NCBI GenBank assembly: GCA_965205485.1
Contig: OZ242180.1
Coordinates: 4,480,001-4,544,000, forward strand
DNA: 64,000 nt
Source: Candidatus Latescibacterota bacterium
GTDB taxonomy: Bacteria; Latescibacterota; UBA2968; GCA-2709665
Direction of reading: 5' to 3'
The notes under the pieces were generated by a model that saw only the letters and a program-made list of their open reading frames with translations, made no database searches and was not told the origin of the DNA. This document shows, piece after piece, positions 546 to 7,383 of this stretch. Each line of letters starts with the position of its first letter. The stretch's first letter is position 1. The translations under genes were made by a program, and so were the position numbers.

Positions 546-908
546 TCAGTCGCCGACGTACTGGCGCAGTTCGAAGACGTTGCCTACCGGATCGGCGATG
601 ACGGCGATGCGCACGGGTATGCCGCCCCCGGCCTCCCGGACATTCCTGACCTCACCGCCGCCGGCCGCGACTTCCTTCACGGCGGCATCGAGATCGTCCA
701 CGTGGAGATTCAGACCGGCGTGCGCGACCGTGCCCTCCGTCATACCCTGGGACAGGATATGGAGCGCCACGATGCATCCTCCGCAGCGTAGCGTACTCCA
801 TCCCGTCGATTCGAATTCCACGTTCAGTCCGAGGACGTCGCGGTAAAACGGCAACGCTCTGTCCATATCATTGACGTAATGGACGACCATGGGTTGTGTA
901 GCGTTCAC
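546..908 (-). CDS. VOC/glyoxalase family protein
   Basis: YVNDMDRALPFYRDVLGL and ADPVGNVFEL motifs; SD AAGGGAG before GTG. Confidence 0.9.
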   Translation of the reverse strand: MNATQPMVVHYVNDMDRALPFYRDVLGLNVEFESTGWSTLRCGGCIVALHILSQGMTEGTVAHAGLNLHVDDLDAAVKEVAAGGGEVRNVREAGGGIPVRIAVIADPVGNVFELRQYVGD

Positions 909-922
909 GGAATTCTCCCTTT

Positions 923-1027
923 CGAAAAAACGATACTACGAGAATACGAAAAACCAAAAAGCGCGAAACTACGAAAAGGCGCGAGACTACGAAAAACCGA
1001 AAGAGTGCGAAACTGCGAATCTCGCGA
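923..1027. repeat. Degenerate short tandem repeat, ~13 CGA(A/G)-core units at 8-10 nt spacing
   Basis: CGA starts at 923, 931, 939, 947, 964, 972, 982, 990, 998, 1008, 1016 and 1025; includes GCGCGAAACTACGAAAA / GCGCGAGACTACGAAAA. Confidence 0.8.
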
Positions 1028-1031
1028 TGGG

Positions 1032-1766
1032 TCAATCCACGGCCGCAAATAGAGGCGGCACCAGGAGCATCACCCCGAATGCCATCAGGGCCATGTACAG
1101 AACACGCTGAAATCGTTCGGGTGCAATGCGCGCGCCGATGAAGCGGCCCAGCACCACGGCAAGAATGACGGCGGGTACGGCCGGCAGATAGAATCCGAAG
1201 ACGTCCCCCGTCCACAGTCCCGCCAACCCGTGGCTGGCTACGATGAGCAGCGTCGACGGCAAGAAGTACCCCTGAAGCGTCGCTCTGAAGCTTTCCGGGG
1301 GCCATCGCCGCAGGATCCCGTAGACGGCCACCGGCGCGGCGTTGACATTGTATGCGGCGCCGAATACGCCGGACACGAAGCCGAACGCGTACGCCCAACC
1401 GATAGGTTCCAGCTTCGGCAGGACGGGCGTCGAAAGGTTGTACAGACTGACGGCGATGAGCAAAATCCCCAGTACAACCTTGAAGACATCCTGTGGTACG
1501 TGACTCAGGATCAGCAGACCGACAGGAATACCGGGTATCGATGCGGCGAGCAAATGTAACGCGGACCTGACCTCCAGGTCCCGCCAGGTCCGGACCAGAA
1601 GCAGGGCGATTGTCGTCAGCATCGTCAGCCCGACCAGAGGCGTCGCTACTTCAACGTTCACTACTGTCACGAGCAACGGCATTGCTACCAGGGCCGTCCC
1701 GAACCCGAGCGTCGAATGGACCAACGCTGCCACAAACACGATGGCGACTACCGTAAACAATAGCAT
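1032..1766 (-). CDS. TauE/SafE (sulfite exporter) family membrane protein
   Basis: GFGTALVAMPLL start, ~8 TM segments, FRATLQGYF motif. Confidence 0.85.
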   Translation of the reverse strand: MLLFTVVAIVFVAALVHSTLGFGTALVAMPLLVTVVNVEVATPLVGLTMLTTIALLLVRTWRDLEVRSALHLLAASIPGIPVGLLILSHVPQDVFKVVLGILLIAVSLYNLSTPVLPKLEPIGWAYAFGFVSGVFGAAYNVNAAPVAVYGILRRWPPESFRATLQGYFLPSTLLIVASHGLAGLWTGDVFGFYLPAVPAVILAVVLGRFIGARIAPERFQRVLYMALMAFGVMLLVPPLFAAVD

Positions 1767-1775
1767 ATTGAACCG

Positions 1776-2720
1776 TCAGGAAGTGGCCCGAAGTCCGTCG
1801 AACCAGCGATCGAAATCGAACGGCGTTTCGAAGTCGGCCAGCCAATCGTCGGTAACCGGCTCCAGCTTGCCGTGGTCGGTATCGAGTACAGCAAGACAGC
1901 CAGGCTGAAATCCTTGCGCTTCAGGGTGATACAGCGGCGAAGCAACCACGCAATCGAGTCCGAGATACGTCGTCTGCCCATAGTGGGTGGGCCCGGAAAG
2001 GACATGGGCGTGACCGGCCACGTGAAACGTCGGGCGAGTACTCTCGATCAGGTCAGTGATCATGCGAGATCCATGAATGTTGCCTCTGAATCCGGTGCTG
2101 CTGCCGTACGGACCCTGATGAGTCACAAGCACGTCGATGCTTCCAGGCCCCAGAGCCAGAAGCGCTTCATACGCACCGCGATTTATGCCTGCTGCATCGC
2201 TGCGTTCCTCGACACCGCCGAGAAACGCGAATCGTAGTTTGCCGAACCTCATCACCGTACCGTCCGGGACGTAACGCAACAGTCCGAAACGATCGACGGC
2301 CGCTGTACCGGAACCCGAATCCCGCGGCAGTTGTTCCAGCCAGTTGAATTCTTCGTGATTGCCGCGAATGAAATGGACGGGCGTTCCAATGGATCCACCC
2401 AGCGTCGACAACGCCTCTGCGAGATCGGCGTCAGCTTGCATCTGACGAACAAAGTCGCGTTGTGACGGGTCCAGGGCAAAATGACGATTGGCGGTCTGCT
2501 CCAGGCTGGACATGTCCCGAAACGCTCCCATGTCCCCTACCTGAATCAGCATGTCGAAACGCCGGCCGTTTTGTTTCTGCCACGTTACAATCAGGGCGAG
2601 TGCGTGAAGCACACGCCCGTGCAAGTCACCTACAAAGCCAATGAGCACCTTTGTTACCGAGTTCTCCTTTCCGGGGTTCTCCCGGATCCCCTCCCAATGC
2701 GTATCTCCATCTCCGCGCAA
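1776..2720 (-). CDS. Calcineurin-like metallophosphoesterase (true start may be ~2650)
   Basis: GDLHG, QVGD, GNHE, VTH and GHAH motifs. Confidence 0.85.
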   Translation of the reverse strand: MRGDGDTHWEGIRENPGKENSVTKVLIGFVGDLHGRVLHALALIVTWQKQNGRRFDMLIQVGDMGAFRDMSSLEQTANRHFALDPSQRDFVRQMQADADLAEALSTLGGSIGTPVHFIRGNHEEFNWLEQLPRDSGSGTAAVDRFGLLRYVPDGTVMRFGKLRFAFLGGVEERSDAAGINRGAYEALLALGPGSIDVLVTHQGPYGSSTGFRGNIHGSRMITDLIESTRPTFHVAGHAHVLSGPTHYGQTTYLGLDCVVASPLYHPEAQGFQPGCLAVLDTDHGKLEPVTDDWLADFETPFDFDRWFDGLRATS

Positions 2721-5097: not shown

Positions 5098-5490
5098 TCA
5101 GCGCTTCGAAAACTGGAACCGTTTGCGCGCGCCCGGGCGGCCCGGCTTCTTACGCTCCACCTCTCGCGCGTCTCGGGTCAACAGCCCGGCCTCGCGCAGC
5201 GGCGTCTTGAGCTCTTCGTTCAGGGCAAGCAGACCCCTGGCGATACCCAGCCGAACGGCCCCGGCCTGGCCGCTGAGACCACCGCCCTTGGCGCTGGCAA
5301 CGATGTTGTATTGTCCGACCGTCTCCGTAACCGTCAGCGGCTGCTCGACGATCATCACCAGCGTCTCTCGCTTCAGATAATCCAGTATCGGCCTGCCGTT
5401 GATGGTGATTTCCCCGGATCCGGGAAACAGCTTCACGTTTGCCGTGGCCGACTTGCGCCGGCCTCTGGCAGAAGCAAGGATCTCTGCCAA
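5098..5490 (-). CDS. rpsI: 30S ribosomal protein S9
   Basis: GRRKSA, GGGLSGQAGAVRLGIAR and ARKRFQFSKR. Confidence 0.98.
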   Translation of the reverse strand: MAEILASARGRRKSATANVKLFPGSGEITINGRPILDYLKRETLVMIVEQPLTVTETVGQYNIVASAKGGGLSGQAGAVRLGIARGLLALNEELKTPLREAGLLTRDAREVERKKPGRPGARKRFQFSKR

Positions 5491-5534
5491 GACCCTACCT
5501 CCTCTCGTTCATCGATTCCTTCAAACTGCGGGAT

Positions 5535-5969
5535 TCAAGCAAGGTCGATCGCTTCGGGCGCCTGACTGTCGTGCGGATGATCGGGACCCGCGTAAATCCG
5601 GACCTTCTTCATCATCCTGCGACCCAGTTTCGTGCGTGGCAACATTCCCCGTATCGCATGCTCCAGCACGAACTCCGGCTGCGTTTCGAGCGCCCGCTTG
5701 AGGGTTTTGGTTTTCAGGCCGCCTGGATATCCGCTGAATCGTGTATACACCTTCTGGTCCGGTTTATTTGCGCCCTTGACCGTAATCTTGTCGGAGTTGA
5801 CCACGATAACGTGATCGCCGGTATCCACGTGGGATGTAAAATACGGCCTGTGTTTGCCCATCAGGATCCGGGCAACCTCGCTGGCAAAACGACCCAGCAC
5901 CTTACCCTCGGCATCAGCCAGAAACCACCTGCGTTCGACGTCAGACTTTTTAGCGCTTGGCGTATTCAT
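5535..5969 (-). CDS. rplM: 50S ribosomal protein L13
   Basis: WFLADAEGKVLGR, DTGDHVIVVN, SGYPGGLK and GMLP; start at MNTPSAK. Confidence 0.97.
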   Translation of the reverse strand: MNTPSAKKSDVERRWFLADAEGKVLGRFASEVARILMGKHRPYFTSHVDTGDHVIVVNSDKITVKGANKPDQKVYTRFSGYPGGLKTKTLKRALETQPEFVLEHAIRGMLPRTKLGRRMMKKVRIYAGPDHPHDSQAPEAIDLA

Positions 5970-6050
5970 AAATCCGAACGGCGTCCGCATCGACGCCGAA
6001 TTCAAACTCACCCCCTCTCCGTGACAAATCCACGCATTGTCAAGCCTCAG

Positions 6051-6079
6051 AAGATATAGAGCTCGTGTGACTTTGTCAA
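6051..6079 (-). promoter_or_regulatory. Sigma70-type promoter for rplM-rpsI
   Basis: TTGACA-N17-TATCTT. Confidence 0.7.
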
Positions 6080-6170
6080 GCACAAACCCGATTCAGCCCG
6101 TTGCAAAGGCCCCTCCGGGCCACGCCCGGTTCCCGCCCGCGGAGCGACTTTATCAACATACCCCTGAGAC

Positions 6171-6226
6171 AAAAAATGCGCCGCGATTCGGGAGCCGGTA
6201 CACCGGCCACATCTCCTCACGGCGCA
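6171..6226 (-). terminator. Intrinsic terminator of the small upstream transcript
   Basis: TGCGCCGTGA...TCGCGGCGCA stem followed by TTTTTT. Confidence 0.7.
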
Positions 6227-6370
6227 ACTCTTGAGACGGCTTCCATCTCACGGCGCCCCGCACGAGTCGCCGGGGCCCGTCAATACGACGGATCGCCTGT
6301 CTTTCGATGGCTGTTTAGATTCGCCAGGCGCGTTACCAGACGAGATGTTCTCCCGCACCCGGCAGCGCAC

Positions 6371-6406
6371 CTAACTACAGCCACCTCCACTGGTCGTTTC
6401 GCTCAT
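6371..6406 (-). CDS. Candidate 11-aa small ORF MSETTSGGGCS
   Basis: SD AAAGGAGGTG (6412-6421) 5 nt before ATG, just after the predicted TSS; TAG stop. Confidence 0.5.
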   Translation of the reverse strand: MSETTSGGGCS

Positions 6407-6433
6407 TTGACCACCTCCTTTCTGTGTAAGCGA

Positions 6434-6462
6434 AATATACGCCACCCGAAAAGGGAAGTCAA
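6434..6462 (-). promoter_or_regulatory. Sigma70-type promoter
   Basis: TTGACT-N17-TATATT. Confidence 0.75.
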
Positions 6463-6480
6463 AAGCTTTCTCCGGCCTGG

Positions 6481-7383
6481 TCAGGTCCTTGGATCCAGGG
6501 CGTCGCGCAATCCGTCTCCAAGCAGGTTGAATGCCAATACGGTCAGAAAAATCGCCACACCCGGAAACGTCAATACCCACGGCGCCCGAAGGACCAGTTC
6601 CCGTCCGCCGGTCAGCATGGCGCCCCACTCCGGCGCGGGCGGCTGCGCCCCCAATCCCAGGAAGCTCAGACCGGCCGCATCGAGGATTGCGGTAGCCAGA
6701 CCGAGCGTGGACTGCACGATCAGGGGCGTCAGACAGTTCGGGAGAACCGAAAAGAACAGGATATGGAAATCCCCCGCGCCAAGCGCCCGGACAGCCTGAA
6801 CGTAGTCCTGTCCGCGCACGGAGAGTGCGGATGCCCGTACCAGCCGGGCATATTGGGGCACCGCGACGATTCCGACCGCCAGCATCGCATTCTCCAACCC
6901 GGGGCCCAGGATCGCCACAATGGCGATAGCCAGGAGGATGCTGGGAAATGCGAGCATCAGGTCCATCGCACGCATCAACACCTGATCCAGCGCGCCGCCC
7001 CAGTACCCGGACACGAGGCCGATGGGAACGCCCAGTACCAGTGCGATCAGCACCGCGACAACCCCAATCCGCAGCGAAATCCGCGCACCGTGAATGACGC
7101 GGCTCAGAACGTCCCTTCCAAAGTCGTCCGTGCCGAACGGATACGCCAGCGACGGCGGCTGGAGACGTTCATAGAGATTCTGGGCATAGGGATCATGCGG
7201 CGCCGCCAGTGGCGCGGCGATAGCCAGCACCAGGAAGCCCAGCAGCAGCACGCCGCCCGCGGCCGCCAGCCGGTTCTTCAGGAGCCGTTTCCAGAACAGC
7301 CCGCCCCAGCCTGCGCCGGGCAGGACCTGCGGCATGTCGGCTTCAATAAACGTTCCCCCTGCCGGATGGGATGATCTGTTCAT
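6481..7383 (-). CDS. Dipeptide/oligopeptide ABC permease (DppC-like)
   Basis: FGTDDFGRDVLSR, EAA-like QAVRALGA and LSFLGLGAQPPAPEWG; ATGA overlap with the upstream gene. Confidence 0.93.
   Translation of the reverse strand: MNRSSHPAGGTFIEADMPQVLPGAGWGGLFWKRLLKNRLAAAGGVLLLGFLVLAIAAPLAAPHDPYAQNLYERLQPPSLAYPFGTDDFGRDVLSRVIHGARISLRIGVVAVLIALVLGVPIGLVSGYWGGALDQVLMRAMDLMLAFPSILLAIAIVAILGPGLENAMLAVGIVAVPQYARLVRASALSVRGQDYVQAVRALGAGDFHILFFSVLPNCLTPLIVQSTLGLATAILDAAGLSFLGLGAQPPAPEWGAMLTGGRELVLRAPWVLTFPGVAIFLTVLAFNLLGDGLRDALDPRT

Follow-up and report, generated by a model that had tools for sequence, protein, structure and literature searches.

A stand-alone small RNA gene upstream of rplM in a Latescibacterota genome: a putative distant relative of Ms_IGR-5 with a 16S-tail complement and an 11-codon ORF

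Bacillus 5' “stab-SD” elements, such as the one in the cryIIIA leader, are Shine-Dalgarno (SD)-like sequences near the 5' end that are complementary to 16S rRNA and bind the 30S subunit, and they are thought to block decay from the 5' end. In leader-peptide attenuators and erm-type leaders the translation of a short ORF remodels the helices downstream, while the dual-function sRNAs SgrS/SgrT, RNAIII/hld, and SR1/SR1P are translated small RNAs with a conserved functional peptide. The family that comes closest to the locus described here is Ms_IGR-5, listed in Rfam as RF02471 with the label “Actinobacteria sRNA”. According to excerpts of the respective reports, Ms_IGR-5 is listed in S. lividans and validated by RNA-seq (PMC8079986), one sRNA transcription unit of S. 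avermitilis matches it (PMC8780764), and the homologues in M. abscessus and M. smegmatis are ribosome-protected, with “significant ribosomal reads” (PMC4974804). The same kind of source identifies the M. smegmatis RNA, IGR-5, as ncMSMEG15794c (PMC10454040), places it between MSMEG_5794 and MSMEG_5795 with an NAD-capped A at +1, and terms it a “validated but yet uncharacterized” sRNA (bioRxiv 10.1101/2021.12.14.472595). No function is assigned to Ms_IGR-5, IGR-5, or RF02471 in such excerpts of the literature searched, supplements aside. Searches by peptide strings and by guessed ncRv names gave nothing on a mini-ORF RNA, no title retrieved from the anti-SD and small-ORF literature concerned an Ms_IGR-5-type RNA, and a mycobacterial sRNA review does not mention IGR-5.

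The window analyzed here is a stretch of 64,000 nucleotides (64 kb) from a Candidatus Latescibacterota bacterium whose genome assembly is 97.27% complete. A first-pass annotation, made from the sequence alone, had proposed an unannotated structured small transcript with an SD sequence and an 11-codon ORF upstream of the ribosomal protein operon. The proposal of a structured small transcript with a perfect SD holds with respect to fold, promoter, terminator, and conservation: the predicted 257-nt RNA appears to be the product of a separately transcribed, stand-alone, single-copy gene, and it is structured and conserved. The promoter that had been pointed out, TTGACT-N17-TATATT, was recovered at 6462-6434 by a consensus scan, which returned 2 promoter-like sites in positions 5400-7000 compared to 0.5 ± 0.8 in shuffled sequences. 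Both hexamers are kept across 30 aligned related loci, in which the 5' end, the ORF, and the terminator also align. Judging by the spacing from the -10 box and by the conservation of a (U)ACAC start, the predicted +1 A is at 6427, and the matches to our model R1 and to Rfam both begin at this position. The other end of the RNA is formed by an intrinsic terminator, as had been proposed, in which a GC-rich terminal hairpin runs into T6 at 6176-6171; it was absent from the output of a simple terminator scan, and among 38 aligned relatives its two helices (helices 7 and 8) show changes on both sides in 12 of 17 pairs. The coordinates of all features are collected in Table 1.

Table 1 Features of the 257-nt RNA gene and its surroundings; positions are those of the window.
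Feature	Position	Strand	Description	Basis
Upstream gene	6481..7299	minus	OppC/DppC-type ABC permease	Pfam BPD_transp_1, OppC_N
Promoter	6434..6462	minus	-35 TTGACT 6462-6457, 17-base spacer, -10 TATATT 6439-6434	consensus scan
Whole predicted RNA	6171..6427	minus	257 nt, +1 A (ACACAG...) to end of U-run	promoter distance, family alignment
SD1	6409..6423	minus	AGAAAGGAGGTGGTC = AGAAAGGAGGUGGUC, complement of the 16S rRNA 3' tail, four bases from the predicted +1 A 6427	sequence
P1 hairpin	6391..6413	minus	UGGUC/GACCA, AUG within the loop	MFE and centroid fold
Mini-ORF	6371..6406	minus	MSETTSGGGCS*: ATG 6406, 10 codons, TAG 6373-6371	sequence
Second SD-like box	6377..6388	minus	GGAGGUGG inside the mini-ORF; its GGUGGCUGU is the P2 5' strand	fold, alignment
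P2 long-range helix	6385-6377 with 6314-6306	minus	9 pairs, GGUGGCUGU with ACAGCCAUC	fold, alignment
P3, P4, P5 nested helices	6323..6375	minus	P3 GUUAGGUGCG/CGCGCCUGGC contains the stop codon	fold; alignment helices 3, 4
Unpaired junction	6315..6322	minus	GAAUCUAA (family consensus GAAUYC)	fold, cross-phylum alignment
P2 3' strand	6306..6314	minus	ACAGCCAUC	fold, two alignments
3' domain	6232..6300	minus	long irregular hairpin, restricted to the long form of the own order	fold
Terminator	6171..6228	minus	GCGCCG.../...CGCGGCGC stem with inner hairpin, then U6 (6176-6171)	fold, covariation
rplM promoter	6051..6079	minus	separate, TTGACA-17-TATCTT	consensus scan
rplM	5535..5969	minus	ribosomal protein L13	Pfam Ribosomal_L13, E 8e-43

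Contigs lying on this unit are present in four RNA libraries from three studies. One of 161 nt is identical to 6256-6416 and one of 212 nt covers 6213-6426 with 8 differences, both of them inside the 257-nt RNA, and a further contig spans 6289-6446. Such contigs carry no ends, strand, or level, and DNA can occur in such libraries; with this in mind they are compatible with an abundant small RNA starting near 6427. Uncovered stretches, such as 6440-6700 in most runs, are uninformative.

The fold of the RNA was analyzed on a 261-nt stretch, which gave -121.4 kcal/mol compared to -97.3 ± 4.8 kcal/mol in 200 dinucleotide shuffles (z -4.98), with none of the 200 shuffles as good. When 38 distinct full-length sequences of relatives were aligned, the 8 helices with their 74 pairs had 91.7% of the cells paired, while sliding the 3' partners by 1-3 columns left only 34-46%. 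Changes on both sides were seen in 28 pairs, and the observed values were reached in none of 500 column shuffles. This covariation supports the predicted fold. It is unevenly distributed along the molecule: it is heavy in the 3' hairpin and in the terminator (the 3' domain, helices 5 and 6, has changes on both sides in 13 of 19 pairs), and the 5' helices are mostly invariant. Where three more hairpins had been described downstream, the 3' half instead consists of one long irregular hairpin and the terminator with its inner hairpin.

In the 5' part of the molecule the pairs of P1 (helix 1) are kept in 38 of 38 aligned relatives, and P2 (helix 2) has 98% of its cells paired. In an alignment of 62 sequences across phyla, where P2 is helix 3, the value is 93.5%, and helix 4 of that ragged alignment gives 73.9%. 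P1 and P2 hardly covary because the sequence of both is constrained, and the pairing of these two helices is supported by conservation rather than by compensatory change. P2 encloses a stack of 10+6+6 pairs that begins at the stop codon, and the same folding of P3, P4, and P5 was found in six relatives folded individually. The first-pass annotation had buried the stop codon in a 17-bp helix nested within a 9-bp outer helix; in line with this, the stop codon is fully paired within the three-part stack, which is nested in the 9-pair P2. The junction GAAUYC is conserved across phyla and unpaired in the fold. The first bases of the RNA form an additional helix, P0, with the bases just 5' of the second SD-like box; it encloses SD1 and P1 and covaries in 3 of 4 pairs in the 62-sequence alignment, and SD1 is bulged out where P0 passes into P1. 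Pairing between loops and junctions (pseudoknots) was sought by eye in the fold, and nothing consistent was found.

The SD sequence almost at the 5' end, which had also been noticed in the first pass, is indeed located at 6423-6409. The 16S gene of the same genome ends with ...GGAUCACCUCCUUUCU, and SD1 pairs with 15 contiguous bases of this tail, one G-U pair among them. Within the genome only the antisense of the 16S gene has a longer run of complementarity, and the one other 15-base site is largely G-U. With a duplex energy of -26.2 kcal/mol SD1 ranks first among 52,358 SD-like sites when the antisense of the 16S gene is excepted, a small lead over the next-best site, which reaches -26.0 kcal/mol by chance in this 60% G+C genome. 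The complement ends in GGUC, four bases that double as the 5' strand of P1, and the folding energy of the whole local hairpin is only -5.4 kcal/mol. In the ensemble the probability of being unpaired is 0.72 for SD1, 0.91 for the AUG, which agrees with the earlier description of a start codon looped out by the UGGUC/GACCA stem, and 0.00 for the stop codon; in five other relatives the value for SD1 is lower, 0.31-0.62.

We then consider how widely the gene is found. A BLAST search with a 311-base unit gave one match each in 40 of the 41 genomes of the order, the own genome included. By family, the matches amount to 20/21 in f1 and 19/19 in f2, and the sole miss is a 92%-complete assembly in 70 contigs. 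Model R1, which describes the 5' domain of the long form, matched 17/18 f1 and 30/30 f2 genomes, and none of 64 genomes in the class-level set f4, a blank that arises because f4 carries short forms. BLAST at class level found 3 of 76 f4 genomes, and the core model R2 (SD1, P0, P1, ORF, and second box) raised this to 23 of 76. With R2, always as one copy per genome, the matches were 20/21 in f1, 31/31 in f2, and 2/3 in the set f3. The five f4 matches that were inspected all proved genuine: each is a short form of about 170-190 nt that starts with UUG and stops with UGA. In the short forms of a sister order and of Planctomycetota, the SD/ORF core is kept and everything downstream is replaced. 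Since the core is found beyond the own order, it must be regarded as the shared part, and the 3' domain and the link to rplM as order-specific. One relative carries a transposase insertion directly after the stop codon, showing that an intact long form is not indispensable.

The first-pass annotation could not match the RNA to a known class and saw in it a candidate for an undescribed system. At Rfam gathering thresholds there is indeed no match anywhere in the window. Below threshold, RF02471 matches 6288-6427 on the minus strand with 26.0 bits (E 7.5e-4), so that the Rfam search proposed earlier did return a family, at a score below the 45-bit cut-off. A match to Scr1601 (17.7 bits against a cut-off of 100) was too weak and was set aside. 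Scored against the same model, Mycobacterium gives 175.8 bits, Micromonospora 98.5, Kineococcus 85, Acidimicrobiia 58.4, Zixibacteria 55.9 and 42.5, Blastocatellia 52.3, Syntrophobacter 32.9, and another Latescibacterota copy, from a genus-level relative, 30.5. Because the copies of other phyla fill this gradient between the mycobacterial copies and the 257-nt RNA, we read the latter as a divergent relative. It would then be a distant, enlarged Latescibacterota relative of Ms_IGR-5, judged from its sequence and predicted fold, and not a member by the Rfam cut-off.

The arrangement of the parts argues in the same direction. As in Ms_IGR-5, the 257-nt RNA has a (U)ACAC start, an extended SD, and a P1 hairpin with the start codon in its loop, followed by GAGGUGGCUG paired to CAGNCACC, the stop codon at the foot of the helix that comes after it, the GAAUYC junction, and a terminal hairpin. 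The helix GGUGRCUG / CAGNYAYC that closes the 5' domain of RF02471, with the stop-bearing helix and the GAAUYC junction inside, is also present. Ms_IGR-5 and the 257-nt RNA are each encoded by a single gene per genome with its own promoter, and both contain a mini-ORF of 11-13 codons. The 257-nt RNA differs from Ms_IGR-5 in that its host is labelled Latescibacterota and not Actinomycetota, its ORF is in another frame with 11 codons rather than 12, its P1 is GGUC/GACC and not GGUCC/GGAC, and it has an extra 3' domain of approximately 130 nt together with the linkage to rplM within the order.

A motif pattern built from the two SD-like boxes was run against one genome per species and found the same core in at least 120 loci; of the 120 listed, 103 are labelled Actinomycetota and 17 are distributed over seven other phylum-level groups. 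Among the matches listed, these 17 belong to Blastocatellia (4), Planctomycetota (4), Latescibacterota (2), Zixibacteria (2), Deltaproteobacteria/Syntrophobacter MAGs (2), Bryobacteraceae (1), Sumerlaeota (1), and a Heliobacteriaceae MAG (1). Both Latescibacterota loci listed carry the long form as at 6427-6171. In the aligned 62 sequences from several phyla, AAGGAGGTGGT is invariant (62/62), a motif for which the pattern scan had selected, and GAGGUG.CUG is invariant or nearly so.

The 11-codon ORF MSETTSGGGCS-TAG of the first-pass annotation is present and conserved. In all 46 distinct sequences from f1 and f2 the ATG lies 7 nt after GGAGG and is followed, 11 sense codons in all, by TAG; together with the helices described above, this answers the earlier call for homologues that conserve SD, ORF, and fold. 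Across phyla an ORF of 11-13 codons (12 in 94 loci) is found in 111 of the 120 loci listed, which were chosen by a pattern demanding both SD-like motifs and include many close kin. Among these matches the 111 starts lie in the loop of the first hairpin (ATG 52, TTG 44, GTG 15) and the stops follow GGUGRCUG by 2-7 nt, where the next helix has its base (TAG 100, TGA 7, TAA 4), while in the remaining 9 of the 120 listed, of Acidimicrobiia type, the frame stays open with an in-frame CTG (8) or ATT (1). The invariant bases GAGGUGGCUG are read in three different frames. Among the 111 ORF-bearing matches listed, 105 have GAG GUG GCU (...EVA..), 4, all from Planctomycetota, have AGG UGG CUG (...RWL..), and the 2 from Latescibacterota have GGA GGU GGC (...GGGC.), as do all 46 local relatives. 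Compared with the actinobacterial copies, the own lineage is one base longer ahead of the box and one base shorter from the box to the stop, so that start and stop remain in frame. Selection thus appears to preserve the docking site and to fix where the ORF lies and how long it is, but not to preserve the peptide.

This bears directly on whether the 11-residue peptide is itself the functional product, either as a micropeptide or as the precursor of a modified peptide. All 46 relatives keep the string TSGG(G/D)C(S/R), but the bases that encode these residues form P1 and P2, so that constraints on the RNA suffice to explain their conservation. The three free codons vary widely among the 46 relatives, and among the matches listed these conserved bases are translated in two further frames in other lineages, as ...EVAxx (105) and ...RWL.. 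(4). We therefore consider the micropeptide of the first pass quite improbable, and the RNA differs in this respect from SgrS/SgrT, RNAIII/hld, and SR1/SR1P, the peptide of Ms_IGR-5-type RNAs being read in three frames and not conserved. Even less credit can be given to the idea that readthrough of the stop codon, or reinitiation at the GUG after the UAG, leads to a protein with about 40 more codons. A GTG or ATG does follow the TAG in 46 of 46 relatives and the 40-codon frame exists in the window, but its open length varies from 7 to 67 codons among the relatives (7-10 in much of f2), the actinobacterial copies lack a start codon past the stop, and the GUG forms part of helix P3; the extended frame, in short, is not conserved. 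The proposal that the RNA sequesters ribosomes or CsrA fared differently in its two halves. Its ribosome part is near the reading that we favour, while sequestration of CsrA/RsmA through the several GGA motifs is extremely improbable, as these motifs are located in SD-like runs and helices and not in repeated hairpin loops, and PF02599 had 0 matches in the own, 97.27%-complete genome in a search that matched 3 control genomes.

The position of the gene in front of rplM had led to the suggestion of a leader-peptide attenuator, in which translation of the mini-ORF decides between termination and readthrough into rplM-rpsI. Two observations speak for a cis-acting leader: rplM follows the RNA in the same orientation in 41 of 46 distinct f1/f2 loci, and a 1459-nt RNA-library contig of a relative reaches from the RNA into rplM, although a contig with two genes is not proof of a single transcript. 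Of the five loci without rplM, two stop at a contig edge, but in the other three (L064, L069, and L070) the sequence continues downstream for at least 1.9 kb without rplM. Moreover, the RNA has its own terminator and rplM a promoter of its own between that terminator and the gene, its TTGACA box being found 3' of the terminator in most aligned relatives. Unrelated genes, often in convergent orientation, flank the RNA in the sister order, in a further class of the phylum, and in other phyla, so that the linkage, which had been put forward as a check, proves to be local to the own order. No alternative antiterminator pairing was identified in the 257-nt RNA, and no Rfam leader family matched in the window or at the RNA. 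The RNA does share with attenuators and erm-type leaders a short ORF and a downstream helix holding a second SD-like sequence; it differs from them by the absence of a conserved downstream gene, by the separate rplM promoter, and by the absence of conserved regulatory codons. Altogether an attenuator is improbable. Another possibility is a trans-acting base-pairing sRNA where the masked, anti-SD-like 3' strand of P2, ACAGCCAUC, and the GAAUYC junction are the acting parts, and where translation of the mini-ORF only gates their exposure or stabilizes the RNA. Conservation of the junction, which is unpaired, and of the 3' strand of P2 speaks for it, as does a stand-alone gene with its own promoter and terminator and with neighbours that vary by lineage. 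Against this, the short forms of the sister order and of Planctomycetota keep the SD/ORF core only, and since their downstream part is replaced, a common seed outside the core is unlikely. We regard base pairing in trans as rather doubtful, though worth keeping in mind.

The explanation that we prefer, with a probability of roughly 55%, is that the 257-nt RNA is a ribosome-docking mini-mRNA transcribed from a stand-alone gene related to Ms_IGR-5. The gene, its fold and conservation, the complementarity to 16S rRNA, and the ORF kept in three frames have all been demonstrated computationally, and engagement of the ribosome is likely the most economical reading of the conserved parts of the core. 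In this mechanism the 5' end would offer a 15-nt complement to the entire single-stranded 3' tail of 16S rRNA. Because GGUC belongs both to this complement and to P1, pairing with the 30S subunit should open P1; the displaced P1 strand would then expose the AUG in the P1 loop. Translation would proceed over 11 codons. As the latter half of the ORF doubles as the 5' strand of P2, and P3 begins with the stop codon, every round of translation would unzip the conserved core, which could subsequently refold. The displacement by 16S rRNA, the unzipping, and any effect on the cell are steps that we infer from this arrangement, the ribosome-protected reads mentioned above being those of the mycobacterial homologues. 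The RNA resembles the stab-SD elements in having an SD-like run near the 5' end with strong complementarity to 16S rRNA. Stab-SD elements belong to the leaders of long mRNAs and do not require an ORF, whereas here a whole conserved RNA with a fixed mini-ORF surrounds the site.

Since the docking site and the placement of the ORF are kept and the peptide is not, the output would be exerted on or through the ribosome. Candidate outputs are the holding, parking, or titration of 30S or 70S ribosomes, a report of free translation capacity by way of the stability of the RNA and of whether it is open or closed, or a self-stabilization of the RNA. In a wider and more tentative form, which we consider possible but hardly to be counted on, the Ms_IGR-5-type RNAs would make up a widespread class of riboregulators that target the ribosome. 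They would open only when an intact 16S 3' tail displaces the paired strand, would cycle ribosomes over a sequence-indifferent frame of 11-13 codons, and would thereby park or titrate 30S/70S or report translation capacity or the integrity of the anti-SD tail, in at least 8 phylum-level groups, with a lineage-specific long form next to rplM in one order of Latescibacterota.

What appeared to be a new system would then belong to a known family, and its link to rplM is local to one order and does not define it. Although Rfam lists Ms_IGR-5 as an actinobacterial sRNA, its core exists far outside Actinomycetota. This core bears a maximal complement to the 16S tail and a mini-ORF that is held in place while its frame changes, a pattern that points to engagement of the ribosome, and not to the peptide or a neighbouring gene, as the function.

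Short forms of the RNA gene, of approximately 130-190 nt, were seen in families f3 and f4 of the sister order (L078, L079, L080 and L266-L270). These forms retain the core of SD, hairpin and ORF, with UUG as the start codon and UGA as the stop codon, and 3' of this core they carry small helices built from SD-like and anti-SD-like strings, an example being GGAGGUGGAUCACCU, in which a portion of the 16S tail recurs. Two loci from family f8, which belongs to another class of the phylum (L112 and L113), gave a weak match of 29-34 bits to R1, the model of the 5' domain of the long form. Their 5' SD and the long-range helix P2 are the same as in the RNA of the window's order, the second box reads GCAGGUGA and is not SD-like, and the ORF is a Cys-rich UUG frame of 15 codons (M-D-x-x-x-C-A-G-D-C-W-G-C-D-A).

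Coordinates of features downstream of the RNA gene in the window and of the insertion in L071.
Feature	Position	Strand	Description
rplM 5' untranslated region	window 5970-6050	minus	~80 nt, rplM promoter to start codon
Extra GC-rich stretch	window 6086-6170	minus	between RNA terminator and rplM promoter
Insertion in L071	locus ~680-2050		encodes a transposase of Mutator/IS256 type (Pfam Transposase_mut, E 3e-61)

The rplM 5' untranslated region had no match in Rfam. By alignment, the GC-rich stretch is present in this genome and in three genus-mates (L010, L012 and L016), and is absent from the other genus-mates. At locus L071 (G038:C1:3073700-3077900) an insertion of approximately 1.3 kb splits the RNA gene directly after the stop codon, leaving the remainder of the 5' domain approximately 1.4 kb distant from the split-off part. 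A search of the 8.4-Mb genome of this relative for a second copy of the RNA gene found none.

Nine copies have no ATG, GTG or TTG start (L123, L129, L139, L177, L191, L203, L207, L228 and L231); eight are from records titled as Acidimicrobiia-type, and L191 is titled Actinomycetota only. The frame is still open in these copies, and since an in-frame CTG (eight copies) or ATT (one copy) is found where the start is expected, their sequences suggest that translation may initiate at near-cognate codons.
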